Positions 17,481-63,489 of a DNA stretch of 64,000 bases are shown here, piece after piece. Source of the DNA: Candidatus Woesearchaeota archaeon (GTDB lineage: Archaea > Nanobdellota > Nanobdellia > Woesearchaeales > SKIA01); assembly GCA_043771635.1 (NCBI GenBank), contig JAYVHA010000006.1, positions 1,668-65,667 on the forward strand. The letters run 5' to 3'. The notes under the pieces are model-generated. The model searched no databases. It worked only from the letters and a program-made list of their open reading frames with translations, and was not told where the DNA came from. A program made the translations under genes and the position numbers. The first letter of the stretch is position 1, and every line of letters starts with the position of its first letter.

Positions 17481-20075
17481 GTGTGGCGCTACCTCATTAT
17501 TCTCCTGCTTGCGATGCCGATTGTTTACGCGGACGAAGTTCTGTTATTTGCAGGTCGAGAATCAGTATTAATTACAGGCGCACAACTTATTGTAAACGAT
17601 AAATCATTAGTTGTGAGCGCCGTGAACCCGGCGAACGACACCATAATAGATAGAGATAGTTTTGATCCAACTGACTTTGATGTAATTGCGCTCGTGGTAA
17701 GCGTTCCGAGCGAGTTCCCTGACGGTACAAGTATCGCATTCGTCGCAAACATCACACTGCCAGCGATTGGCGGGCAAAGCAATGTAGTATTGGGATACAA
17801 CACTTCTACAAGCGGCACGGCCACGCTTTATTACAATCCAAACACAACATCCTACGCAGGCAATTGGACTTGGTTTGCGCAGCTGGATAACAGTATTACG
17901 AGCGGTCTGCGCAATGTAATTGTTAAGGGTAGCGCGACCACAGTCTTCGCCTCGGCCTCGATTAACCCGAACGCAAGTTATGTGCGCGCGGACACTGTGC
18001 TCACTGTGGTAAACTTAACTAGTAATGGTCCCGAAAGTCTAGCGGAACTTAACGCGTCATACAACGCCGTTGTAAATTCACAGTTTACTAATCGCACTGG
18101 CTCGAACTCGCTTGCAGGCTTAACCTTTACAGGCTCTAATTGGCAAAGCAACTTTGCGATTTCAACACTCGGTGGCGTTGGACTTTGGAACGCATCACTG
18201 CTCAGCGCACTTGACTTCTTCTACACGCCGACGTCAAACTATCGAGAGTTTTTTGTATTCGGCCGCATGAACGTTACAGCAATAACAGCTAATCCTGACT
18301 CCATTGCCGCCACCGACTTTACCACCATAAGTTGCGCGGTACAAGATCAAGAATCATCGTACGCAGTGACGGGCGCAAACGTCAGCTTCTATCGTAACAA
18401 TACGTTCCTCGGATGGAACCTAACAAACGCGACAGGCAACTCAACACTCACCTTTTCAATAAATTCAAGCGGACTTTGGAACATAACGTGCATAATACAA
18501 AACCAGTCAAACATACAATACTCGGTTGGCGGCGCTCCTAATGCTTCAACAATGGTTAACGTAACCAACTTAGGACCAGTTTTCATAGCAGGCATTAATG
18601 ACGCGAGCGACACTACAAACACCACTAACATGGGCGAACTCGTAACTTTCATGACTGGTGCAAATGATCCGGAACTTGACGAGTGGTATTTACTAATTTG
18701 TGGTTCCGCTGGAGTGACTGCGGGTTCATGTAATGGATTCGAATACTGTCGCAGCGGATATACTTCAAGCGGCGCTAATGCCAATTGTTCTGTTAACACG
18801 ACAGGCTATACTAATCGCACATATCCATGGTTTGCGTACCCCTGCGACAACACTTCAAGCTGCGGCGTAAGTAACAGCGCCACAAGTCCATTCGTAATTA
18901 ACCACGTTCCGATTGCGTATCCGCACATAACCCCGGCGAGCCCTACTGCTGCACAGAACTTAACCTGCGTCATAAACGCCACCGACCCTGACCCGGGCGA
19001 CACAGTTTCAGGCAACTATAGCTGGTGGCTTCGCGACGAGAGCGCAGGACCGTTCGACCCAATTATAGGGCAAACTGGAAGCGTCCTGCCAAACAGTCAG
19101 TACGATTCAAATGATCAAGTGCTTTGCTCAGCGCTGCCAATCGACCAGCACAATTTTGCCGGGACAATAGTGAACAGCTCAAGCGTAACTATTGCACAAG
19201 GCGCACTAAGCGCAAGCGCGACACTGAGTGCGCCAAACATGACCGTTCTATATTCAGTAGTACTGAGCGTTTCATGCACTGTTGCAACGGGCGACTCGGA
19301 GGACGTTACGCTAACAATTGAAGATGATCGCACAGGAGGATTTGCGCAATCAAGTGCGAGCCCTGCGGACGTTTCTGTAAACACTTCAAGCATCTCACTA
19401 GGCACTCTTAGTGGTACAAGCGCAACGCATCAAGTCAGAATTACTGGAGAAACTACAGGCACTTATCAATTTCGCGCACGCTGCACAACCACCGACACAA
19501 CTCCTGTGACTGCAACGAGCACGGCTCAAACAGTAACAGTTCTCGCGGATTTATCCGCACCAATAATATCTCTGCTTGATACAACGCCAACAAATCAGTC
19601 AGTTCAATTTGATTGGTCGACTGATGACCCGTCTGACAGTCTTGTCGAGTACGGCCTCACGCCCGCGCTTGGCCTGTCTGTTTTCAATCCGACTCTTGTA
19701 AATGTACACTCGATTAACATTACTGGCCTACTAGAGAAAACAGACTATTTCTACAACATCACTAGTTGTAACACGGACGGCTTCTGCTCAACAGTAGGTC
19801 TATTTTCAGTGCGTACACTCGGCTCTGAAGTAGGCTTCCCGTATGAAGGAGGCTATTTCACAGGTACTTTTGTAGAGCGCGGTCCGGAAGCAAACGTCGC
19901 TATTAACGGCAGCATTACAAAGGGTGACGTTTTCGAGATATTCCTTGAAACACCGCAAGGCCTCGACAGCCAAGACGAAGTCACTGTAATCATAACGGTT
20001 AAAGGTAAGGAGATACGTAAACGCATTACGCTACCATATACAATTAAGTCACCGGAGACTCCAATATACCCATGA
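17481..20075 (+). CDS. secreted surface protein sharing the repeat module of the giant protein, with an FN3-like domain
   Basis: Signal peptide MWRYLIILLLAMPIVYA. Module ...SFYRNNTFLGWNLTNATGNSTLTFSINSSGLWNITCIIQNQSNIQY is homologous to the SFYRNGT...CNISNQT units of the 7707-aa protein. An FN3-like segment (QSVQFDWSTDDPSDSLVEYGLTP...YFYNITSCN). Dense NxS/T sequons. Confidence 0.6.
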   Translation: MWRYLIILLLAMPIVYADEVLLFAGRESVLITGAQLIVNDKSLVVSAVNPANDTIIDRDSFDPTDFDVIALVVSVPSEFPDGTSIAFVANITLPAIGGQSNVVLGYNTSTSGTATLYYNPNTTSYAGNWTWFAQLDNSITSGLRNVIVKGSATTVFASASINPNASYVRADTVLTVVNLTSNGPESLAELNASYNAVVNSQFTNRTGSNSLAGLTFTGSNWQSNFAISTLGGVGLWNASLLSALDFFYTPTSNYREFFVFGRMNVTAITANPDSIAATDFTTISCAVQDQESSYAVTGANVSFYRNNTFLGWNLTNATGNSTLTFSINSSGLWNITCIIQNQSNIQYSVGGAPNASTMVNVTNLGPVFIAGINDASDTTNTTNMGELVTFMTGANDPELDEWYLLICGSAGVTAGSCNGFEYCRSGYTSSGANANCSVNTTGYTNRTYPWFAYPCDNTSSCGVSNSATSPFVINHVPIAYPHITPASPTAAQNLTCVINATDPDPGDTVSGNYSWWLRDESAGPFDPIIGQTGSVLPNSQYDSNDQVLCSALPIDQHNFAGTIVNSSSVTIAQGALSASATLSAPNMTVLYSVVLSVSCTVATGDSEDVTLTIEDDRTGGFAQSSASPADVSVNTSSISLGTLSGTSATHQVRITGETTGTYQFRARCTTTDTTPVTATSTAQTVTVLADLSAPIISLLDTTPTNQSVQFDWSTDDPSDSLVEYGLTPALGLSVFNPTLVNVHSINITGLLEKTDYFYNITSCNTDGFCSTVGLFSVRTLGSEVGFPYEGGYFTGTFVERGPEANVAINGSITKGDVFEIFLETPQGLDSQDEVTVIITVKGKEIRKRITLPYTIKSPETPIYP

Positions 20076-27184: not shown

Positions 27185-28252
27185 ATGGCTCTCTTTACGA
27201 ACCGCTACCACCAGGAGCAAACATTATTTCGCGACGAGAATAGTCTCAATTACGAGTTCCTCCCGAAAACACTTCCTTTCAGAGAGAGCCAGCAACAGTA
27301 CCTTGCTGACTGCCTCAAGCCACTTATGAGTCACCGCGCTGGCCGCAACGTAGTCATTCACGGACCGCCAGGCATCGGTAAAACCGCAGCTTCGCGCTCT
27401 GTGCTGCGCGAACTTGAAGACACCACTGATGAAATTAAACAAGTATACATCAACTGCTGGCAGCACAATACTTCATTTCGAATCCTAGTACAAATTTGTG
27501 ATGCGTTCGGCTACCGATTAGTGCATAATAAAAAAACAGACGAACTTATGGACATAATTGAGCACAACTTAAACAAAAAGCCCTGGGTGCTAGTCTTCGA
27601 CGAAATCGATAAAGCTGAAGATCTTGATTTCCTGTACTTCATCCTGGATAAACCGTTTCACAAATCAGTGATTCTAATCACTAACTACGCAGATTGGCTT
27701 CCAGAACTCGATGAGCGTATCCGCTCACGATTAATGGCGGAAGTACTTGAGTTTAAAGCGTACGAAGAGCGCGAGATTAGCACAATTCTAAGGCAGCGCT
27801 TGCCATTCGCGTTCCAAGACAATGTATGGGATGATGACGCGTTCGCCCTCGTTGTTCGCGCAGCAGCCGCACACGGCGACATCCGTACAGGACTATACTT
27901 ACTGCGCGAAGCAGGCAACATCGCAGAAGAAAAGTTTGGACAGCGCGTACTGCTTGCGCACGCGGACGCAGCAGTTGTAAAACTTGAAAAGTTCACAATT
28001 AAAAAAACTACCTCGCTCGCTGAAGAAGAGCAAACTATTCTTGGAATTGCGCGCGAGAATCCTGAGACGCGCATTGGCGACTTGTTCCGCACGTATCAAG
28101 AGCGCGGCGGACAAACGTCTTACAAAACATTTCAACGTAAAATCAATCACCTCGCGGAAAATCGGTTTATTGGCGTCGAGAAAGTTGTTGGCGGCACTGC
28201 CGGTACAACAACAATAATTAAACCCGCGAACAAGAAGTTGACCGAGTTTTGA
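27185..28252 (+). CDS. Orc1/Cdc6-family AAA+ ATPase
   Basis: Walker A HGPPGIGKTAA, Walker B LVFDEID, C-terminal winged-helix region. At 355 aa it is shorter than typical initiators. Confidence 0.8.
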   Translation: MALFTNRYHQEQTLFRDENSLNYEFLPKTLPFRESQQQYLADCLKPLMSHRAGRNVVIHGPPGIGKTAASRSVLRELEDTTDEIKQVYINCWQHNTSFRILVQICDAFGYRLVHNKKTDELMDIIEHNLNKKPWVLVFDEIDKAEDLDFLYFILDKPFHKSVILITNYADWLPELDERIRSRLMAEVLEFKAYEEREISTILRQRLPFAFQDNVWDDDAFALVVRAAAAHGDIRTGLYLLREAGNIAEEKFGQRVLLAHADAAVVKLEKFTIKKTTSLAEEEQTILGIARENPETRIGDLFRTYQERGGQTSYKTFQRKINHLAENRFIGVEKVVGGTAGTTTIIKPANKKLTEF

Positions 28253-32526: not shown

Positions 32527-33963
32527 CTATCCCTTCAGTACGCCAAGCGGTACCAACCGTGCAACAGGCACTGCTATTCCTGCTTCAGCAACGACGCGAA
32601 TAACTTCGTCCACATCTTTGTATGCTTGCGGCGCTTCTTCGGCGAGGCCCTTTACACTCGGTGTTTTCACATGCACGCCCAGCTCTGCTAGCTCGCGCTT
32701 AACTGTTGCGCCATCCAGCTCTTCGAGTGCGCGGGTGCGACTCATAGCGCGACCGGCGCCGTGGCAGCAGGATCCGAATGTTTCTGTCATAGCGCCGGCT
32801 GCACCTGCTAGTACCCATGACGCAGTTCCCATACTGCCGGGAATTAGTACAGGCTGGCCGTGCGCGCGCAGTTCTTCAGTGATCTCAAGATTGCCAGGTC
32901 CGAACGCACGCGTTGCACCTTTGCGATGCACGCACAGGTCTCGCATAACTCCATCTACTTCATAGGACTCGAACTTCGCAATATTATGACTCACATCATA
33001 CAACTGCTGCACAACTGCACTCGGAAAGAGTCGCTGCGTGACCGCCCTAACATTATGCGCGATAACTTGACGATTGCACCAAGCGTAGTTTGCAGCTGCT
33101 GCCATGGCGGCGCGATACTGAACGCCAAGTTCACTTGCAATAGGCGCATACAGTAAATTTTTTTCTGGCAGCGCGTCCATGAGTTCTGGGTATGCGTCGT
33201 CCATGGCTCGTAAAAAGTCGGAGCAAATTTGGTGGCCAACGCCGCGACTGCCGCAGTGTATTAGAATGCAAAGCTGCCCCTCGCGCAGGCCATAAGCTGC
33301 GGCGCGCTGCGGATCGAGAATGCGCTCAACGCGTTGCAGCTCCAAAAAATGGTTGCCACTGCCGAGCGTGCCGAGTTGAGTGAGACCTCGCTCTTTTGCG
33401 CGTGCACTCACCGCATTCGGATTTGCGCCTGCAAGGCAGCCTCGCTCTTCTGTACGTACTAAATCTTCTGGCGCGCCGAGTCCGCGCGCAAGCGCCCACT
33501 GCGCGCCCTGCACTAAAATGTCGTCCAAGTCTTGCATTGACAATGCTATCTTGCTGTCTCGACCCATACCGACAGGCACTTCTCGCGAGAGCGCGTCAAG
33601 ATAAACGTCCATTACTGCGCGCGCGTCTTCAGCGTCGATATTAGTTGTTAGAAGTCGGACGCCGCAATTTATATCGAAGCCAATTCCGCCAGGACTAATT
33701 ATTCCTGTTTTTGCGTCGAACGCTGCAACACCTCCAATAGGAAAACCGTAACCACTGTGGGCGTCCGGCATGGCAAGACTTGCGCCGACAATTCCTGGCA
33801 AGGTAGCAACTCTAGCTGCCTGGTCAATTGCACCCTCGTCGATTGTTGCTTCAAGCACAGGACTTACATAAATTCGCGCCGGCACAAGCATCACCCCAGT
33901 TTTAGGCACTTCAAGCCTAGTGCTGCTAGTGCGCACACGCTCAGTTTTTCTCGGCTGAATCAT
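32527..33963 (-). CDS. rtcB: RNA-splicing ligase RtcB
   Basis: GSGNHF motif (LGTLGSGNHFLELQ), HCGSRGVGHQ metal-binding motif, and a 478-aa length typical of RtcB. Confidence 0.9.
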   Translation of the reverse strand: MIQPRKTERVRTSSTRLEVPKTGVMLVPARIYVSPVLEATIDEGAIDQAARVATLPGIVGASLAMPDAHSGYGFPIGGVAAFDAKTGIISPGGIGFDINCGVRLLTTNIDAEDARAVMDVYLDALSREVPVGMGRDSKIALSMQDLDDILVQGAQWALARGLGAPEDLVRTEERGCLAGANPNAVSARAKERGLTQLGTLGSGNHFLELQRVERILDPQRAAAYGLREGQLCILIHCGSRGVGHQICSDFLRAMDDAYPELMDALPEKNLLYAPIASELGVQYRAAMAAAANYAWCNRQVIAHNVRAVTQRLFPSAVVQQLYDVSHNIAKFESYEVDGVMRDLCVHRKGATRAFGPGNLEITEELRAHGQPVLIPGSMGTASWVLAGAAGAMTETFGSCCHGAGRAMSRTRALEELDGATVKRELAELGVHVKTPSVKGLAEEAPQAYKDVDEVIRVVAEAGIAVPVARLVPLGVLKG

Positions 33964-34051
33964 GAGTAATGGACGCCAAACAGGGTTATAAATGAGACGC
34001 TAAAAATATCGAGGCCGAGCGAAGGCATATAAACTGCTTTGCGCATCTATA

Positions 34052-34804
34052 GTGATGCTACTGTTCGCTTCGACAAATTGGCTGCTGGCTCTCGCCAGCG
34101 TTGTCGGTGTCAGCCTACTAAGTTTTATTGGCCTCGCAAGCCTTGGTTTTGATAAAAAGACATTTGCTAAAGCGATTCCCTTTATTGTCAGCTTCGCCGC
34201 AGGTGCACTGCTTGGAGATGTTTTTTTCCACATGCTCCCTGAAGCTGCAGAAAACGGCTTCGGAATTAACCTTACACTCGGAATCCTCGGCGGCATAATT
34301 TTCTCTTTTATATTAGAAAAGGTAATCCACTGGCACCACTGCCACCAAACAGGTCACAATCATATTCACCCGGTTGGGTACATAAACTTAGCAGGAGAAG
34401 GAATTCATAATTTTATAGACGGTATGATTATAGGTGCAAGTTATCTTATTTCTGTAGACGTAGGCATTGCAACAACTGTAGCAGTTATTTTACACGAGAT
34501 TCCACGTGAATTCGGCGGCTTCGCAATTCTTGTGCACGCTGGCTTCACACGCACTAAGGCACTACTGTATAATTTCCTAAGCGGCATTGCTGCCTTACTT
34601 GGTCTAGCGCTTGCATGGGTAGGCTCAAACGTTGGGATAGCTGATTTTCTTATTCCCTTCGCTGCAGGTAACTTCATCTACATCGCGCTTGCAGACTTAG
34701 TACCCGAGCTAAATAAAGAGCAGCGCGCGTATCAATCTACTCTTCAACTCTTTTTACTCATAGCCGGCGTTGCTGCGATGTCAGCCCTTTTACTTTTAGA
34801 ATAG
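34052..34804 (+). CDS. ZIP-family metal (zinc) transporter, ZupT-like
   Basis: HNFIDGMIIGASY and HEIPREFGGFAIL motifs with 8 predicted TM segments. Confidence 0.8.
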   Translation: MMLLFASTNWLLALASVVGVSLLSFIGLASLGFDKKTFAKAIPFIVSFAAGALLGDVFFHMLPEAAENGFGINLTLGILGGIIFSFILEKVIHWHHCHQTGHNHIHPVGYINLAGEGIHNFIDGMIIGASYLISVDVGIATTVAVILHEIPREFGGFAILVHAGFTRTKALLYNFLSGIAALLGLALAWVGSNVGIADFLIPFAAGNFIYIALADLVPELNKEQRAYQSTLQLFLLIAGVAAMSALLLLE

Positions 34805-34869
34805 TAATAAATCAAAATAGCGCGGTTACAATATAAAAAACGGCAACAACATAAAATCGTTACAAATTT

Positions 34870-35295
34870 TTATAGATCGAGCACGAATTCAACTGTTGAT
34901 AAGTTAGGTAACTCTTCGATTTTTAGTTCATGATAAGTCATTGCTTTTACTGCGCCATGCATCTCTTCAGTTCGGCGCTCTCCTGTAAGCGTGCCACGCA
35001 GCGTCCAAAGTTTTTGATCCTTCTCAATTTTTAGCATTCCCCCTCTAGGCAAAAATCCTTCAACATCTGCAAGGTAAATTATTTCCGCAACAAGGTCATA
35101 GAGCAGCGCGTCTTTATTGCGTGCGCGCAGCGCAATAACTTTTTCAACGGTTGCAGCAATTGTGCGCGGGTCCATCATTACGGCGGTGTAACCACGGCAC
35201 GCTTCTATAAACGCGCCAGCTAGTGTTGGAGCAAATGCACGTATTTTTACGTCTGCTGTATGGGCAACGTGGACGTAGCCGCTTTGCGCAGCCAC
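34870..35295 (-). CDS. archease (RtcB activator)
   Basis: HTADVKIRAF motif plus a conserved archease core. The probable GTG start at 35295 gives about 141 aa. The ORF-track extension to 35364 has no archease-like sequence. Confidence 0.7.
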   Translation of the reverse strand: MAAQSGYVHVAHTADVKIRAFAPTLAGAFIEACRGYTAVMMDPRTIAATVEKVIALRARNKDALLYDLVAEIIYLADVEGFLPRGGMLKIEKDQKLWTLRGTLTGERRTEEMHGAVKAMTYHELKIEELPNLSTVEFVLDL

Positions 35296-35326
35296 TTCTT
35301 TTTTGCGAGGAGAAACCACGGTAATT

Positions 35327-36040
35327 CTAGTATACTTGCACTCCAGGTGGAATGCGTCGAACAAGGGGTTTTACGCTTTCCTCGGAACTTTTGTCCTGCG
35401 TCACTTCAGCCCTTTTGTCATTGCGGCGATCAGCCCTAGAAACAAATTCATTGTCTGCTCCTATTTCTTTTGGAATGACTCGCTTTTTCGGCTCGGGCTC
35501 GAAATTATCAGTATCAACATCAGCAGCAGCATTATTCGATTCCGAGCTACCATTTTCAACTTCTGCAAGTAAGTCTGCAATTCGACGTGATTGCGTCAGC
35601 GGCACTTGCATTTTAGGCTGCGCCGTAGGCGCAGAGTACTGCGCATGCTCACGCGCCGCAGGTGATGCAGGTGCCGCAGCAGGCGTAGATGTAAATCCTG
35701 GCGCAAGATTTCTGTACGCAGGCTCACTACGGAAAGTATTTTCCTGCTCTGGACCAGATTCGATTGGGCCATGCTCCTCGTGCAGCGGCGGAAACGGGTG
35801 CTTTTGACTTGCATCCTGCGCGCCTGCGATGGATAAAATTAGCGCTGCAGCCGCTCTGAGGTCGGCGGGCGAGTCTTTTGCAGTGTCAACTGAAATAAGC
35901 ATAGTCCTTTTGTAGCGCTCACCACTTATATACCTTCCCGGAGCGGCGCCGAAATTAGCACGCAAAACTGAATTACGCTTTGCAGCAAGGAGTAAATTTC
36001 CAGAACGCGCGACCACTGTCCCGTATTTGTTTAGAAGCAC
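35327..36040 (-). CDS. hypothetical low-complexity Ala/Pro-rich protein
   Basis: 237-aa ORF with a disordered composition and no motifs. Could be spurious or a divergent gene. Confidence 0.25.
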   Translation of the reverse strand: MLLNKYGTVVARSGNLLLAAKRNSVLRANFGAAPGRYISGERYKRTMLISVDTAKDSPADLRAAAALILSIAGAQDASQKHPFPPLHEEHGPIESGPEQENTFRSEPAYRNLAPGFTSTPAAAPASPAAREHAQYSAPTAQPKMQVPLTQSRRIADLLAEVENGSSESNNAAADVDTDNFEPEPKKRVIPKEIGADNEFVSRADRRNDKRAEVTQDKSSEESVKPLVRRIPPGVQVY

Positions 36041-36069
36041 ATTAGGCTCACTCTTGCCACACTAACAGC

Positions 36070-37137
36070 ATGGTAACTTCACTAACGGCTATTGCTCTTC
36101 TTGGGCTCGTAATCACCGGCACGTACTACGATCCGCTTCTATCTGAAACTGGCGGAGAAGCGATTCAACTCGAGAATCTTGGTAATACAGCAATTTCATT
36201 TGCCGACGCAACTCTAATAACTAAAAGCGGCGCAATTAACCTTCCACGCACAACTATTCCGCCGGGCGGCGCATTCCTAATTACTGACAGCGGATGGTCG
36301 GATCCAGCCGGCCTCAGAGACAATCTTTCTTGGCCGGGCGCAGACCTGGAAACGCCACTAAGTTTAGCAAACACAGCGAGCTGGATAGAAATTAGGGACC
36401 GCGCGTCAAACGAGACAACTAGCAGACTTGAGTGGAACAGCACTGTAAAAGCTAGGGAGGGCAAACTGTTTACTCCTCAGGGTGAAACTAATGCTGTTTT
36501 CCGTAATAGCTCAAGCGCCGTTACGACTATTCCAGTGACCATAATTATTGCAAACGGCCCGCCGATTATCGTAAACGTTACTGTGACGGATGATGCGTCG
36601 TCGCCAGGCATTCAACTAATGAGCTATGCGCGCACAATTCATGTGGAGGCCACTATACATGAACCGAACGGTGAATCATTTAGCGCAGTTGCGCGCTTTG
36701 ACGGACGCGACACTGAGTTTGTACAGCAATCAGAAAATCCGTTGTCAGCGTCCACACCAGCAGTTTTCACTGCGGACATAGCGGTAAGCGCGCTTGCTCC
36801 GGGAGACTACACTCTAAGTATCTTGGCAAGTGACGGCGCTGCGACCGCAACTAGTAATGTCCACATAACAGTACTTGCGAGTTCCTCAGTATCCGTTTCC
36901 GGACCGCTGCGCTTTAGCGGCGTGCCAGGCACACCAGTTGGCGACGTAGTAACTATTACTAATCAAGGTAATACTGAGCGAACAGTAACTGTGCAACATG
37001 TCCCTGTCGGCGCAACTTGCACTCCGCTAAGCTTCACGCTCGCGCCAGGCGAGGCCCAAGCGCTAGCTTGCTCGTTAGTAATCCCAGCAGGTCAACCAGG
37101 CGAAGTGCGCGAGCGCGTCACCATACTCACACAATGA
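36070..37137 (+). CDS. secreted lamin-tail-domain (LTD)-like protein
   Basis: N-terminal signal/TM and an LTD-like block (GEAIQLENLGNTAISFADATLITKSGAINLP...GGAFLITDSG), followed by Ig-like beta-rich repeats. Confidence 0.45.
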   Translation: MVTSLTAIALLGLVITGTYYDPLLSETGGEAIQLENLGNTAISFADATLITKSGAINLPRTTIPPGGAFLITDSGWSDPAGLRDNLSWPGADLETPLSLANTASWIEIRDRASNETTSRLEWNSTVKAREGKLFTPQGETNAVFRNSSSAVTTIPVTIIIANGPPIIVNVTVTDDASSPGIQLMSYARTIHVEATIHEPNGESFSAVARFDGRDTEFVQQSENPLSASTPAVFTADIAVSALAPGDYTLSILASDGAATATSNVHITVLASSSVSVSGPLRFSGVPGTPVGDVVTITNQGNTERTVTVQHVPVGATCTPLSFTLAPGEAQALACSLVIPAGQPGEVRERVTILTQ

Positions 37138-37189
37138 AACAATTAATTTTGGAAGCACAAGACCCTATAAAGCGTCGAGGCAAGCACAA

Positions 37190-37546
37190 ATGGAATCCGT
37201 AACTGTAGCACTAATTACAGCAGTACTAAGCGGAATGGCAGGCAGCAATGTTGACGCCATGGTTGCGCTTCATGCGCCAACTGAGAGCATCGTTTGGGTG
37301 AACGGTGAAGCGAATCGTTTGAGCGCGGGTGAAACCCGCATAGTAGCTGTACCAATCAACTTGAGCGTAGGACGAAGCAACCAGCATATAACTGTGGTTA
37401 CGGAGAGCGTAACGCACGAACTCTCGGTCGCAACCATTGGGGAGCGTCCAGTAAACCTACGTTGGTGGATTCCACTATCAACGCTTCCGCTAATACTACT
37501 TAGTGTGCGCGTTTCGCGCCCAAGAAAAGTCGTTGGTAGTTCATGA
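37190..37546 (+). CDS. hypothetical protein with C-terminal TM helix
   Basis: 118-aa ORF with a C-terminal hydrophobic stretch (WIPLSTLPLILLSV). Overlaps the TatD 3' end on the opposite strand. Confidence 0.25.
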   Translation: MESVTVALITAVLSGMAGSNVDAMVALHAPTESIVWVNGEANRLSAGETRIVAVPINLSVGRSNQHITVVTESVTHELSVATIGERPVNLRWWIPLSTLPLILLSVRVSRPRKVVGSS

Positions 37547-38273
37547 ACAGCATTTGCGTGCACTCTTCGGGCGTTATCTTTTTTTCAGTTGCAATTCGAG
37601 CCAGCGTTTGGACAACACTTGCCGGCTCGTTCGGCCAAACGTCTTTCTCAGCGGACAAATATGGTGCATCAGTTTCCGTCAAGAGCTGCGATAAAGGCAC
37701 TAGCTGCGCAAGCATCTGAAACTGCGAGGAACGAGAAATTATTGCAGGCACACTGAAAGTATATTTCCGCGCTATGCCTTCCATAAGTAGTTTCTTGCTG
37801 CCTCCAAAGCAGTGCAGGATTACAGGAGTCGGGTGGCGCATTTGTTCAAGCTCAGCGAACACTTCCGCCTCGGCTTTACGAGTATGCACAATTATTGGCA
37901 AACGTAGTTCCGCCGCGAGCTTGCAAGCCGCGCGAAAACGAATTAGCTGCTCGTCCGTAACTGGCTGCATACCATCCAGACCTATTTCTCCTATCGCAAC
38001 TGGCGGGTACGCGCCGTGCAGCGCTTGCTCGCGGATCCACTCTAGCGCCGCGTGGTCTGCAGCAGCATCATACGGATCCGTTGGATACAGACCATATACT
38101 GGACGAATTATTGCATACTGCTCACAAAGTGAACGTACAGCTTCGTTACTAGCCTGGTTTGTTCCATTGCTTAGAATTGCTTTTACTCCGGCGGCACGCG
38201 CGCGGTCAAGTACTGCAGGAAGAACACCTTCAAAGGCTTTATCATCCATATGAGCATGAACGTCGATGTACAT
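37500..38273 (-). CDS. TatD-family metal-dependent hydrolase (DNase)
   Basis: MYIDVHAHMDD N-terminal His motif and a TIM-barrel TatD pattern (...ETDAPYL...). Confidence 0.8.
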   Translation of the reverse strand: MYIDVHAHMDDKAFEGVLPAVLDRARAAGVKAILSNGTNQASNEAVRSLCEQYAIIRPVYGLYPTDPYDAAADHAALEWIREQALHGAYPPVAIGEIGLDGMQPVTDEQLIRFRAACKLAAELRLPIIVHTRKAEAEVFAELEQMRHPTPVILHCFGGSKKLLMEGIARKYTFSVPAIISRSSQFQMLAQLVPLSQLLTETDAPYLSAEKDVWPNEPASVVQTLARIATEKKITPEECTQMLFMNYQRLFLGAKRAH

Positions 38274-38340: not shown

Positions 38341-38412
38341 ACAAAGCTAAAGCAAACAAAGCTAAAGCAAACTCAGCAATAGCAAACAAAGCTAAAGCAA
38401 ACAAAGCTAAAG
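38341..38412. repeat. 15-nt tandem repeat (caaacaaagctaaag) x about 5, intergenic
   Basis: Direct reading: acaaagctaaag caaacaaagctaaag caaactcagcaatag caaacaaagctaaag caaacaaagctaaag. Lies between the Zn-ribbon gene's 3' end and the TatD promoter. Confidence 0.6.
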
Positions 38413-38820
38413 GTTGGTCAGAAATGCGAGCGTAAATTCTTCTTCAAAAGTTGTCGTACGCGTTTCTTTCTCGTCTCGGATTAATATATCCGCACGATAT
38501 GCCCCTTCATCTTTCTCGATAGTGTCGGCGTCAACAATAACCACGCAGTCACGGTCGGTCTCCTCGCCAATCGCGTCTTCAAGCGCATCAAGAAGCGCTT
38601 CTTTATCGGACACTGAAGCAGAGTTTAACCTGGAAGCAAGGCCGTGCTGTTTACTTTTTATAAAGACTCCTTCACCACAGCTAGGACAACCAGTGTGTGC
38701 ATCCTCTTCTCGGGCCACTGCGGCGCAGCGTAAACAGTAAAGCATTCTATACGGACAGCAGTCGCCGTATATAAACTTGTGTGCCAGTAGTTCTGAGCTA
38801 ATAATGTGCGCGCGACTCAC
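38407..38820 (-). CDS. Cys4 zinc-ribbon protein with acidic C-terminal half
   Basis: CPYRMLYCLRC...CPSCGEG. Sits 9 nt downstream of the giant ORF's stop, so it is probably co-transcribed. Confidence 0.4.
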   Translation of the reverse strand: MSRAHIISSELLAHKFIYGDCCPYRMLYCLRCAAVAREEDAHTGCPSCGEGVFIKSKQHGLASRLNSASVSDKEALLDALEDAIGEETDRDCVVIVDADTIEKDEGAYRADILIRDEKETRTTTFEEEFTLAFLTNL

Positions 38821-61691: not shown

Positions 61692-61849
61692 ACGCTGCGC
61701 GCCTGCCGAGCGAGCTTGCGTGAGGCACAGAGAAGCTCGAGTAGTTCTTGTAGCAGAACGAGCGCTAGTCCTGGCAGTTAAGCGCACACAAGTACTTGCA
61801 GCGCAGCGCATGCTAGTGCTTGCAGCCTTGTTTCGCGGATAAGCAAAGC

Positions 61850-62344
61850 TCATTTTTGCCCTCCGCGACCTAGCACGTAGCGCACTTGCTGCGTCGGTAA
61901 GTTTGACAAAATTTGCGCAAGGCGAACAGGCGTAAGACCAGTTTGCTTGCAAATTGTGGTTAGCGGCAATCCCTGCTGGTACGCGTGCACTATGTGCGTG
62001 TATCTTAGCACAAGCGGAGTGACTTTACCGCGGCGTATGCGCGCCAAGTGGGGTTTGAGAATTTGTTGAAGGCGCTTTGGGGTGATGGACTCATCTTGTC
62101 GACTAGAAAATGCAAACGCATTGGCCTGCTTAAGGACAGTGTGTGCGAGCTGAGGACTGATTGTTGCAGCACGATCTGAGAAGGTTATTGTGCCGTCGCT
62201 GCGAATCGCAGATGTCTTAAGTTCTGCAAGCTCGCTGACAGTGCAGCCACTCTCGTATAAAAACTGGGCAACAAGTTTATCGCGCTCACGCTCTATAGAA
62301 CTAATGAACGACTGATACTCCTCATAATCGAGGTAATCTACCAC
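61850..62344 (-). CDS. small tyrosine-recombinase-fold protein, catalytically degenerate
   Basis: 164 aa that aligns by eye to the XerC/D catalytic domain (ERDKLVAQFLYESGCTVSELAELKTSAI ~ box I; TPLVLRYTHIVHAYQQGLPLTTICKQTGL ~ HxLRHxxAT box II; QQVRYVLG ~ the catalytic Tyr). Arg-I (T), His-II (L) and His-III appear substituted. Confidence 0.45.
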   Translation of the reverse strand: MVDYLDYEEYQSFISSIERERDKLVAQFLYESGCTVSELAELKTSAIRSDGTITFSDRAATISPQLAHTVLKQANAFAFSSRQDESITPKRLQQILKPHLARIRRGKVTPLVLRYTHIVHAYQQGLPLTTICKQTGLTPVRLAQILSNLPTQQVRYVLGRGGQK

Positions 62345-62506
62345 CTGTTTTTTTCTCCAACGAAAAAAACTCCCCCACGGAGTTTCCCTTTATTGTTGAA
62401 TAATCAAACTAGACATTTAAAAGTGTATTGATTTCACCGACGGTGAATAGAAAAAAAATATTCCCTTCCAAGTGAAAACCTGGAAGCGCAGTTAATCCCG
62501 ATTTCC

Positions 62507-63427
62507 TTACGGATAGAGGTTGATTCTACGTTTGTAGATTACGTTCGGGATCCTGTCCAAGATGTAGGTTGAGCGTCCATCCTGCGGGAAGATCTTAATT
62601 TCAAACTCTCCATTCTCTGGAAGCGAGTGGTGGCTCTTGAGCTTGAAGTAAATGAATACAGTCTCACCGTATTCTAGGTACCAGTCATCTTGACCGACTA
62701 ACGTCAACAAGCAAAACTTAGTTTCAGGCTTGATTAAGTCGAACGAGCAGTCACCTTCAAAGACGTCAGTGATGCGTAGCGTATTTGCATCAAGCTGGTT
62801 TGCAGTGTTTGAGTTGTCTTCAATGTGGAAATAACCATAGGTATTATTTTGACCTTTGATTGCCACATCTGTAATGTTTACAGTAAGACTGCCAGCTTCG
62901 AGGTCAGCGCCAACAGACAAGTTGTCGGTTTCACCAGACTCGCTTAGGTTAAACTGCAAGTAGTCGTCTGACGCATTTCCTGATAGTTGCACACGTACTG
63001 TGTCTGTGAAGCCGTCACCATCAAGGTCGCCGAAGGCAACATAGCTCGCAGTAACTGCCGTCGAAACTGTTTGGTTAATCGTAATTAGTGTTGGATGCTC
63101 AAGGTCTGCTGAGTAGGCGCCTTCGTCCGTAAAGAATGAAACGGATGTTTGTTTGAAGTTAATTGGACCCGCTGCTGGCTCCGGACGAGTGAGAATTTCA
63201 AAATTATTCGCAGTTTTATTCTCTGTGTCGCCAGTTGCGAACACGTGCGATACTTCAATACCGTTAATTAGTCGGTTCTGCGCTTGCTCTGCAACTATCA
63301 AGGATTTTTGCTGAAGCACGCCCGAAGTTGAGATGATAACTCCTGCAGCAACTGCGGCTACTAATATAGTCGCAATAAAGATAATTAGGGTACCGATACC
63401 CATTACCGCTTTACGGTTGAACATCAT
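62507..63427 (-). CDS. archaellin/archaeal type IV pilin-like protein (class III signal peptide)
   Basis: N-terminus MMFNRKAVMGIGTLIIFIATILVAAVAAGVIISTSGVLQQKSLIVAEQAQ matches the conserved archaellin N-terminal domain. Confidence 0.7.
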   Translation of the reverse strand: MMFNRKAVMGIGTLIIFIATILVAAVAAGVIISTSGVLQQKSLIVAEQAQNRLINGIEVSHVFATGDTENKTANNFEILTRPEPAAGPINFKQTSVSFFTDEGAYSADLEHPTLITINQTVSTAVTASYVAFGDLDGDGFTDTVRVQLSGNASDDYLQFNLSESGETDNLSVGADLEAGSLTVNITDVAIKGQNNTYGYFHIEDNSNTANQLDANTLRITDVFEGDCSFDLIKPETKFCLLTLVGQDDWYLEYGETVFIYFKLKSHHSLPENGEFEIKIFPQDGRSTYILDRIPNVIYKRRINLYP

Positions 63428-63451: not shown

Positions 63452-63466
63452 CGGTATTTAAATGTT
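63452..63466 (-). promoter_or_regulatory. archaeal TATA box upstream of the archaellin-like gene
   Basis: TATTTAAAT (plus strand 63455-63463) lies 28-36 nt upstream of the ATG at 63427. Confidence 0.4.
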
Positions 63467-63489
63467 TCGTGAGTGCGCATAACAAATTT

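Follow-up and report, generated by a model that had tools for sequence, protein, structure and literature searches.

A degenerate tyrosine-recombinase catalytic domain encoded directly upstream of a giant surface protein gene in a Woesearchaeota archaeon belongs to a conserved family with the same kind of genomic partner

The window analysed here is a stretch of 64,000 nt of DNA from a Candidatus Woesearchaeota archaeon. On its minus strand an archaellin-type gene, a hairpin followed by eight T residues (T8), a TATA-like box, a small gene that we call mini-Xer and a giant gene follow one another in this order. The mini-Xer gene (61850-62344, minus strand) encodes a product of 164 aa that comprises a catalytic-domain fold only, and its GTG start agrees with that of the homologues (MVEYL / VVDYL). 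The giant surface protein gene (38829-61691, minus strand) encodes 7620 aa counted from the Met of its signal peptide (MLPLAVV...), including FG-GAP and Laminin_G_3 domains along with long repeats rich in NxS/T. An earlier note on this DNA had placed the small gene directly 5' of the extended giant frame and overlapping it, and this is indeed the case, since the TGA stop of mini-Xer and an in-frame ATG of the giant ORF overlap as ATGA (61853-61850, minus strand), which, to judge from the sequence, is a translational-coupling arrangement. The same TGA/ATG overlap is present in four other species, where the ATG opens straight into the signal peptide. In the window, the ATGA start is separated from the signal-peptide Met by 54 in-frame codons (61692-61853, minus strand). 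This extension is found only in the window's lineage and contains 10 K/R and no D/E; the RNA structure predicted for its 162 nt is no better than that of shuffled sequence (z=0.2), and a search of Rfam with the region from 61.3 to 64 kb rendered no structured RNA or riboswitch.

Upstream of mini-Xer, the TATA-like box TTTTAAAT (62415-62422, minus strand) is the putative promoter of a mini-Xer/giant gene operon, and an equivalent box, (A)GCAnnTTTTwwAAAC, was found in 5/5 species. The putative 5' leader carries a GAAACT motif (62381-62386, minus strand), a candidate regulatory site that is kept in all five species at 15-45 nt ahead of the start codon and that in the window forms part of a hairpin followed by a T-run (62363-62387). 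This hexamer is the only non-promoter element common to the five species upstream of mini-Xer, whereas an 11-nt palindrome adjoining the TATA box is present, among them, in the window only; no operator was identified in the upstream regions of the five. The conserved neighbour on the upstream side of mini-Xer is the archaellin-type gene (62507-63427, minus strand), whose product of 306 aa carries a class III signal peptide. The BRE/TATA element that belongs to this gene, CGAAACATTTAAATA (63455-63469, minus strand), is identical in 5/5 species, and a gene for an RsmB/F-like methyltransferase is divergent from it. Just 3' of the archaellin-type gene, a hairpin with a 9-bp stem followed by the T8 (62451-62486, minus strand) appears to be terminator-like and would separate this gene from the mini-Xer transcription unit.

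Mini-Xer has the fold of a tyrosine-recombinase catalytic domain, with a similarity far above chance, as had been proposed in the earlier note from an alignment by eye. The NCBIfam model XerA_Arch matched residues 2-148 (E=1.3e-13), phmmer related the protein to Pyrococcus abyssi XerA (4a8e) at E=1.7e-5, the profile of the degenerate mini-Xer family matched the same protein at E=8.7e-13, and a PHROG integrase was matched at E=3.8e-11. The match to the XerA equivalog NF040815 is confined to model positions 94-253 and scores 51.1 bits against a cut-off of 220, so that mini-Xer falls outside this equivalog. With the Pfam profile Phage_integrase (PF00589), the comparison that had been suggested at the outset, the score of 26.2 bits stayed marginally below the gathering threshold of 27.1, whereas the XerA profiles and the fold gave significant matches; a precomputed PF00589 match exists for most homologues. 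An AlphaFold model built on an alignment of 12 sequences reached a pLDDT of 86 and a pTM of 0.81, and its best matches in Foldseek were XerA 5hxy and 4a8e (TM 0.73-0.81, query-normalised), followed by the catalytic domains of XerH, IntI and the P2/HP1 integrases, the whole group spanning TM values of 0.65-0.81 (query-normalised).

In the alignment, residue 5 of mini-Xer falls at residue 105 of XerA, and therefore the catalytic domain stands alone. The N-terminal core-binding (SAM-like) domain is missing, in agreement with the first reading of the sequence, and no separate gene for such a domain lies nearby. The C-terminal half of the protein (residues 76-164) has a pI of 11.5, with 14 K/R vs 2 D/E. 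Matches of residues 117-149 to HTH_23 (15.6 bits; cut-off 24.6) and to sigma-70 region 4 (E=0.003) were both below threshold. No paralogue of mini-Xer was found within the window, no match was returned by the PADLOC defence search, and no relative was found in the phage collection or among the GTDB species representatives scanned, while a scan of metagenome contigs returned only two loci that were already known.

The catalytic positions were mapped by phmmer and family-profile alignments to XerA, for which Serre et al. give R135, K160, H226, R229, H252 and Y261 as catalytic residues (PMC3646895). Arg-I (R135) corresponds to T35 in mini-Xer, the hairpin Lys (K160) lies inside a 6-residue deletion of the beta2-beta3 hairpin, His-II (H226) corresponds to L111, His-III (H252) to L137 and the nucleophile Tyr (Y261) to L146. 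Arg-II (R229), kept as R114, is the sole survivor of the six active-site residues, and the tyrosine-recombinase signature R-K-H-R-H/W-Y is found neither in mini-Xer nor as a feature of the family. The earlier note was right about the Thr at Arg-I, the Leu at His-II, the loss of His-III and the retention of the box II Arg, and it overlooked the Leu at the nucleophile position and the loss of the Lys hairpin. The candidate catalytic Tyr that it took as kept proved misleading, as Y156 lies off-site, 10 residues past the position of the catalytic Tyr, in a flexible tail with pLDDT <55 (52 and 43 in the last two blocks of the model). In XerA, recombination is abolished by R135A alone or by Y261F alone (PMC3646895). 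Because of the state of its active site, catalysis by mini-Xer appears very unlikely.

The degeneration of the active site is a property of a whole family. Eleven homologues of mini-Xer, with identities of 51-66%, are all 163-171 aa long, and in the alignment of these with mini-Xer 46 columns are invariant and all 12 frames are intact. Arg-II is invariant in this alignment, the Arg-I position is occupied by T, S or A, that of His-III by an invariant Leu and that of the Tyr by L, V or I; His-II is still present in 7 of the 12 sequences. A profile search rendered 220 cluster representatives at E<1e-10, and a family set of 161 proteins was assembled from 150 of these representatives, taken among the matches listed, and close homologues. 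Within this set of listed matches and close homologues, 84 members have a single domain (mostly 150-215 aa) and the other 77 carry a tandem pair of domains (mostly 265-360 aa). Residues were counted over the 83 single-domain instances in the hmmsearch alignment of the set: T or S stands at Arg-I in 66 instances and R in 4, L or I stands at His-III in 77, and Arg-II is retained in 76, with K in the other 7; the full R-H-R-H-Y set is present in only 2 proteins.

New conserved positions of the family include (S/T)RQ at 81-83 (R82-Q83), KR at 90-91, LRY(T/S)HI and R141, and its motifs read YE(S/T)GC(T/S)xxE, (S/T)RQ, KR(I/V)QQI, LRY(T/S)HI and (Q)xG(L/I)xxxRxxQ(I/L). The general architecture, into which mini-Xer fits, is that of a single domain of 160-200 aa or a tandem pair, with a Tyr-hydrophobic tail at the C-terminus. 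This conserved tail follows a variable linker and reads Y-x-x-F-F in most members and Y-x-L in the window's subclade; a Tyr lies within the last 30 residues in 75/80 single-domain members. A reading of the tail as a PIP-box (QxxYxxFF) was set aside because a Tyr occupies the aliphatic position of the motif and because the window's own subclade has Y-x-L without FF. The homologues are publicly annotated as "XerD" or "integrase". We found no description of the degenerate mini-Xer family in the literature, and degenerate forms that lack the core-binding domain are mentioned neither in reviews on the tyrosine recombinases of archaea nor in the global classification of tyrosine recombinases, so that the mini-Xer family is apparently undescribed so far.

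The genomic partner of these genes is as constant as their sequence. A gene for a large signal-peptide protein lies directly 3' of the mini-Xer gene in 10/10 family contexts examined, overlapping it by 4-17 nt (4 nt, as ATGA, in most contexts and 17 nt in one), and archaellin-type genes adjoin most members. The arrangement of the window recurs at loci L001 (63% identity), L002/L003 and L092 (about 55%) and on the contig of P0008, and it is kept in the distant single-domain member P0019 (E 2e-34). P0028, another distant single-domain member, has an archaellum operon (FlaC/H/I/J) as its neighbour and overlaps the gene for a Golvesin_C/DUF2341 protein that is at least 2619 aa long; the giant proteins encoded 3' of single-domain members have a homologous N-terminal domain in common. 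Among the tandem forms, the gene overlapped by P0013 encodes at least 1550 aa with Filamin and DUF2341 domains, and the one overlapped by P0018 encodes a signal-peptide protein of 1102 aa. In P0094, a fusion present in two samples, the mini-Xer domain is followed by a hydrophobic (TM) segment and an NxS/T-rich extracellular domain, and the fusion gene is followed by an overlapping gene for a CARDB protein. No mobile-element genes were seen near mini-Xer in the inspected neighbourhoods. The degenerate mini-Xer is a widespread non-catalytic variant of the tyrosine recombinases with a constant genomic partner. At locus L099, a double-HTH protein, in which Sigma70_r4_2, HTH_38, HTH_23 and HTH_24 all score above threshold, is ATGA-coupled to a cadherin/Big-like giant protein of 1645 aa. 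Homology of mini-Xer to this protein was rejected (hhalign probability 0.9%), and it is a positional analogue only.

Two proteins with an intact site, P0153 (187 aa) and P0132 (210 aa), have the size and domain content of mini-Xer. They carry the family motifs GC-x-x-x-E, SRQ and R-x-Q-Q/H, and their matches to the family profile have E~1e-16 to 1e-18, but they differ from mini-Xer in that R, K, HxxRH, H and Y are all kept; P0153 shares about 35% identity with bacterial XerC/D. Their genes lie amid ParA, Phage_rep_O, Fic, nucleotidyltransferase and HVO_A0114-type genes, in plasmid-like contexts with toxin-antitoxin-type genes and no giant gene. Proteins of this kind probably gave rise to the dead family by recruitment, and the presence of these intact-site relatives on plasmid-like elements fits a domestication from a mobile-element recombinase.

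The reading that we favour, with a probability of roughly 0.45, is that mini-Xer has been exapted as a DNA-binding regulator without catalytic activity, expressed together with the giant gene and probably autoregulatory. The catalytic domain of recombinases is a DNA-binding module. Mini-Xer would be a derivative of an Xer-type recombinase reduced to this fold, with the basic surface kept and extended, and it would be the first cistron of a two-gene operon with a TATA-box promoter of its own, its translation being coupled to that of the giant gene via the stop/start overlap. It would be a dimer or a higher oligomer that binds to DNA and leaves it uncut, and would regulate transcription of its own operon and perhaps that of the neighbouring archaellin-type gene too. 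In recombinases the alpha-N helix docks protomers onto each other (PMC3646895), a role that may be taken in mini-Xer by the hydrophobic C-terminal tail of the Y-x-x-F-F type. A DNA-binding regulator derived from the integrase fold was one of the options in the earlier note, and it is the one that the evidence favours, because Arg-II has been kept, basic residues have been added, tandem forms exist, the P0094 fusion has a suggestive topology and the analogue at L099 is an HTH protein. From their sequences, the tandem forms resemble covalent dimers, such as one would expect to bind two half-sites, and the predicted topology of the P0094 fusion is that of membrane-bound one-component regulators. 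We infer the binding to DNA from the fold and the charge only, and oligomerisation and a regulatory role would come on top of it.

Translational coupling and the fusion to a signal-anchored protein would fit equally well a partnership with the giant protein, at its nascent N-terminus or signal anchor, or with its transcript. Mini-Xer, made shortly before the giant protein, would then act in cis in targeting, secretion piloting or translational control and not as a transcription factor, a possibility that is the main rival of the favoured reading and that we regard as unlikely although not negligible. The overlap coupling, kept in every context examined and as ATGA in most, points in this direction, and so do the layout of the P0094 fusion, in which the mini-Xer domain immediately precedes a signal-anchor-like segment and an extracellular domain, the homologous N-terminal domain of the giant proteins that follow single-domain members, and the strongly basic half of mini-Xer, which could bind RNA. 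We know of no precedent, however, for a recombinase fold acting as a chaperone, and dedicated secretion chaperones are usually acidic, whereas mini-Xer is basic in its C-terminal half. Moreover, the positional analogue at L099 is a bona fide HTH DNA-binding protein, and the downstream partners of the tandem forms are unrelated.

A shufflon or inversion system acting on the repetitive giant gene, which had also been suggested, is not supported, because no meaningful inverted repeats or rearrangements were found. The search for inverted repeats flanking segments of the giant gene covered 26 kb (38-64 kb) and rendered only two weak pairs of 18-23 nt that are 83-89% complementary; none flank the mini-Xer promoter, so that an invertible promoter was not found either, and contigs of the same population from six other assemblies are collinear with the window and agree with it at 100% identity, these being short-read assemblies in which minor variants could be missed. 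The same results, i.e. the lack of meaningful inverted repeats within or near the giant gene and the promoter and the identity of six independent assemblies, argue against mini-Xer being a non-catalytic accessory subunit that recruits or modulates the host XerA in inversion, phase variation or cassette rearrangement. Tetramers of tyrosine recombinases do tolerate inactive protomers, XerA is the closest relative of mini-Xer by sequence and fold, and the orientation of the mini-Xer cassette relative to the TatD-RtcB block is opposite in the window and in L001, all of which would be in keeping with such a subunit. Nevertheless, one inversion between lineages that are 63% identical in mini-Xer is what ordinary genome evolution brings about, and neither a XerA gene nor a dif-like site is known for the host genome, so that we consider this proposal improbable.

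More doubtful again is an action of the domesticated recombinase domain in cis on the giant gene in the course of its expression, for which three versions can be put forward. The coupled factor, being made first, could stay on the template or the transcript so that the 23-kb gene is expressed. It could also be a membrane-tethered signal transducer comparable to the P0094 fusion, and a membrane-tethered form might arise in the window's lineage by a -1 slip at CAA-AAA-TGA into the 54-codon extension. Finally, a rewired enzyme using the Tyr of the tail could nick or rearrange the repeat-rich giant gene.

As for such an enzyme in general, an unconventional recombinase or topoisomerase that would use Y156 of the tail in cis or in trans, with a pocket rebuilt from R114, R141, Y115 and H117, we think it highly improbable. 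Tyrosine recombinases differ in the spacing of the Tyr, and Flp delivers it in trans, which would leave room for such an enzyme, as would the frequency of the tail Tyr in single-domain members (75/80) and the new conserved Arg and His residues near the pocket. The Tyr of XerA is, in addition, extruded in the apo structure (PMC3646895). But Arg-I, the hairpin Lys and His-III are absent, when R135A alone is enough to inactivate XerA, there is no core-binding domain to clamp the DNA, no recombination sites or variants were found, and the tail resembles a short hydrophobic docking motif placed after a linker of variable length. The last option, a decaying integrase pseudogene or remnant of a mobile element, as the earlier note had allowed, might account for the missing catalytic residues and N-terminal domain and for the public labels of the homologues, but it has next to no chance of being correct, since the conservation of the family (length, sequence and frame kept in 12/12 aligned sequences, with the 46 invariant columns, and promoter, overlap coupling and synteny kept down to E~1e-34) excludes decay, and the confident AlphaFold model and the lack of mobile-element genes nearby also speak against it.

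Among known proteins, XerA (P. abyssi 4a8e; Thermoplasma acidophilum 5hxy) is the best match of mini-Xer in sequence and fold over the whole catalytic domain, and Arg-II and the RxSEL and LR(H/Y)xxxxH frameworks are common to both. Mini-Xer differs from XerA in being half its size, in lacking the core-binding domain and five catalytic residues, and in its place as the apparent first cistron of a giant surface protein operon instead of a stand-alone housekeeping gene. Small tyrosine recombinases such as FimB/FimE and Rci are encoded beside surface-appendage or adhesin genes and vary pilus or adhesin genes. Mini-Xer resembles FimB/FimE and the shufflon recombinase Rci (mentioned in PMC8138268) in being a small recombinase-family gene beside a surface-protein gene; theirs are catalytically intact and act on inverted repeats, whereas in the case of mini-Xer the active site is gone, meaningful inverted repeats are missing and no variants were seen.

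An analogue in the proposed function is EarA, a small DNA-binding protein whose gene lies beside archaellin genes and has a methyltransferase gene as its constant neighbour (PMC10117864). The mini-Xer cassette also comes with a methyltransferase gene (RsmB/F-like) and archaellin genes, a parallel that is to be taken as functional analogy only. Homology to EarA was rejected because EarA is a winged-HTH protein, and no such NCBIfam match was obtained for mini-Xer. Regulators of the ArnR type, likewise small DNA-binding proteins with genes beside those for archaellins, are membrane-bound, as the P0094 fusion would be too, so that ArnR/ArnR1 provide a second parallel, again by functional analogy only. 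A non-catalytic use of tyrosine recombinases may have a eukaryotic example in the domesticated genes derived from Cryptons. For Pseudomonas aeruginosa XerC, a second, recombination-independent role in the control of pyocins has been proposed (PMC9431673), a precedent for this fold acting in gene control without strand exchange. XerC is a full, active enzyme, however, whereas the mini-Xer family is dedicated, permanently inactive and single-domain, with a fixed genomic partner.

The labels "XerD" and "integrase" wrongly suggest the presence of mobile elements or of recombination beside giant adhesin genes, and the loss of the active site throughout the family implies that mini-Xer proteins should be annotated as non-catalytic. 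The family provides a clear prokaryotic case in which the catalytic domain of a tyrosine recombinase has been recruited to a non-enzymatic role, the dead form having diversified into single, tandem and membrane-fused versions, with plausible intact ancestors on plasmid-like elements. In uncultured archaea, giant surface proteins are believed to attach cells to one another. A small partner gene, coupled to the giant genes in all contexts examined, represents an experimental handle on their control, and a gene of only 165 aa can serve as a compact marker with which the 5' ends of such giant loci can be located in fragmented metagenomes. Regarding the TatD-RtcB block, the best match of the RtcB encoded in the window is that of a Woesearchaeota MAG, at 55% identity, with Archaeoglobales close behind.

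The cassette formed by the archaellin-type gene, the mini-Xer gene (a degenerate Xer-type catalytic-domain fold) and the giant surface-protein gene does not keep the same orientation relative to its surroundings. A gene-order comparison was based on the RtcB-Zip-archease-LTD-TatD block, located at 32527-38273 in the window and at 1-4992 in the relative's contig L001. In the window this block lies next to the giant-gene end of the cassette, in L001 next to the archaellin end; the whole cassette, at least 30 kb long, is therefore inverted in one lineage relative to the other. The window contains an Orc1/Cdc6 gene (27185-28252, plus strand) and a weakly matching OapC-like gene (38407-38820, minus strand); OapB/OapC are found beside the cassette in contig L003 (1433-2198), and a Cdc6-like gene is found 8 kb from it in contig L093 (1-167). 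The cassette may be located near a replication origin.

The conserved upstream neighbour of mini-Xer is the archaellin-type gene (62507-63427, minus strand), whose 306-aa product is unusually long compared with the 195-199 aa of three ordinary archaellins further upstream in contig L004. Its residues 119-142 constitute an FG-GAP-like insert, a repeat type also present in the giant protein. The BRE/TATA element of this gene, CGAAACATTTAAATA (63455-63469, minus strand), is unchanged across the five species compared, whose mini-Xer proteins drop to about 55% identity or less; one of these proteins, the distant single-domain member P0019, matches the family profile with an E value of 2e-34. A GAAACT hexamer (62381-62386, minus strand) is conserved in the mini-Xer leader, and the 11-nt palindrome CACCGTCGGTG (62435-62445), which adjoins the mini-Xer TATA box, occurs in the window only.

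An in-frame extension of 54 codons (61692-61853, minus strand), encoding ten K/R and no D/E residues, separates the conserved ATGA start from the giant gene's signal-peptide Met. It is restricted to the window lineage; in the orthologues the signal peptide starts directly at the ATGA start. The mini-Xer gene of the window ends in CAA-AAA-TGA, so that a -1 slip on AAA would join mini-Xer to the 54-codon frame; this end is not conserved in the other species compared. The natural fusion P0094, found in two samples (L095, 89-2332; L096, 704-2947), carries a mini-Xer domain followed by a hydrophobic segment and a 550-aa NxS/T-rich extracellular domain, and is followed and overlapped by a gene for a CARDB protein.

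In contig L099 (1484-6999, minus strand), a gene whose 193-aa product carries two bona fide HTH domains is linked by ATGA coupling to that of a 1645-aa cadherin/Big-like surface protein, and this pair adjoins a tandem mini-Xer gene and its 1102-aa partner. A small DNA-binding gene together with a giant surface gene may represent a general operon design in archaea.

Elsewhere in the window, ARAGORN called a 92-nt tRNA-Phe (18800-18891, minus strand) within, and on the strand opposite to, an 864-aa ORF without Pfam match (17481-20075, plus strand); one of the two is doubtful.
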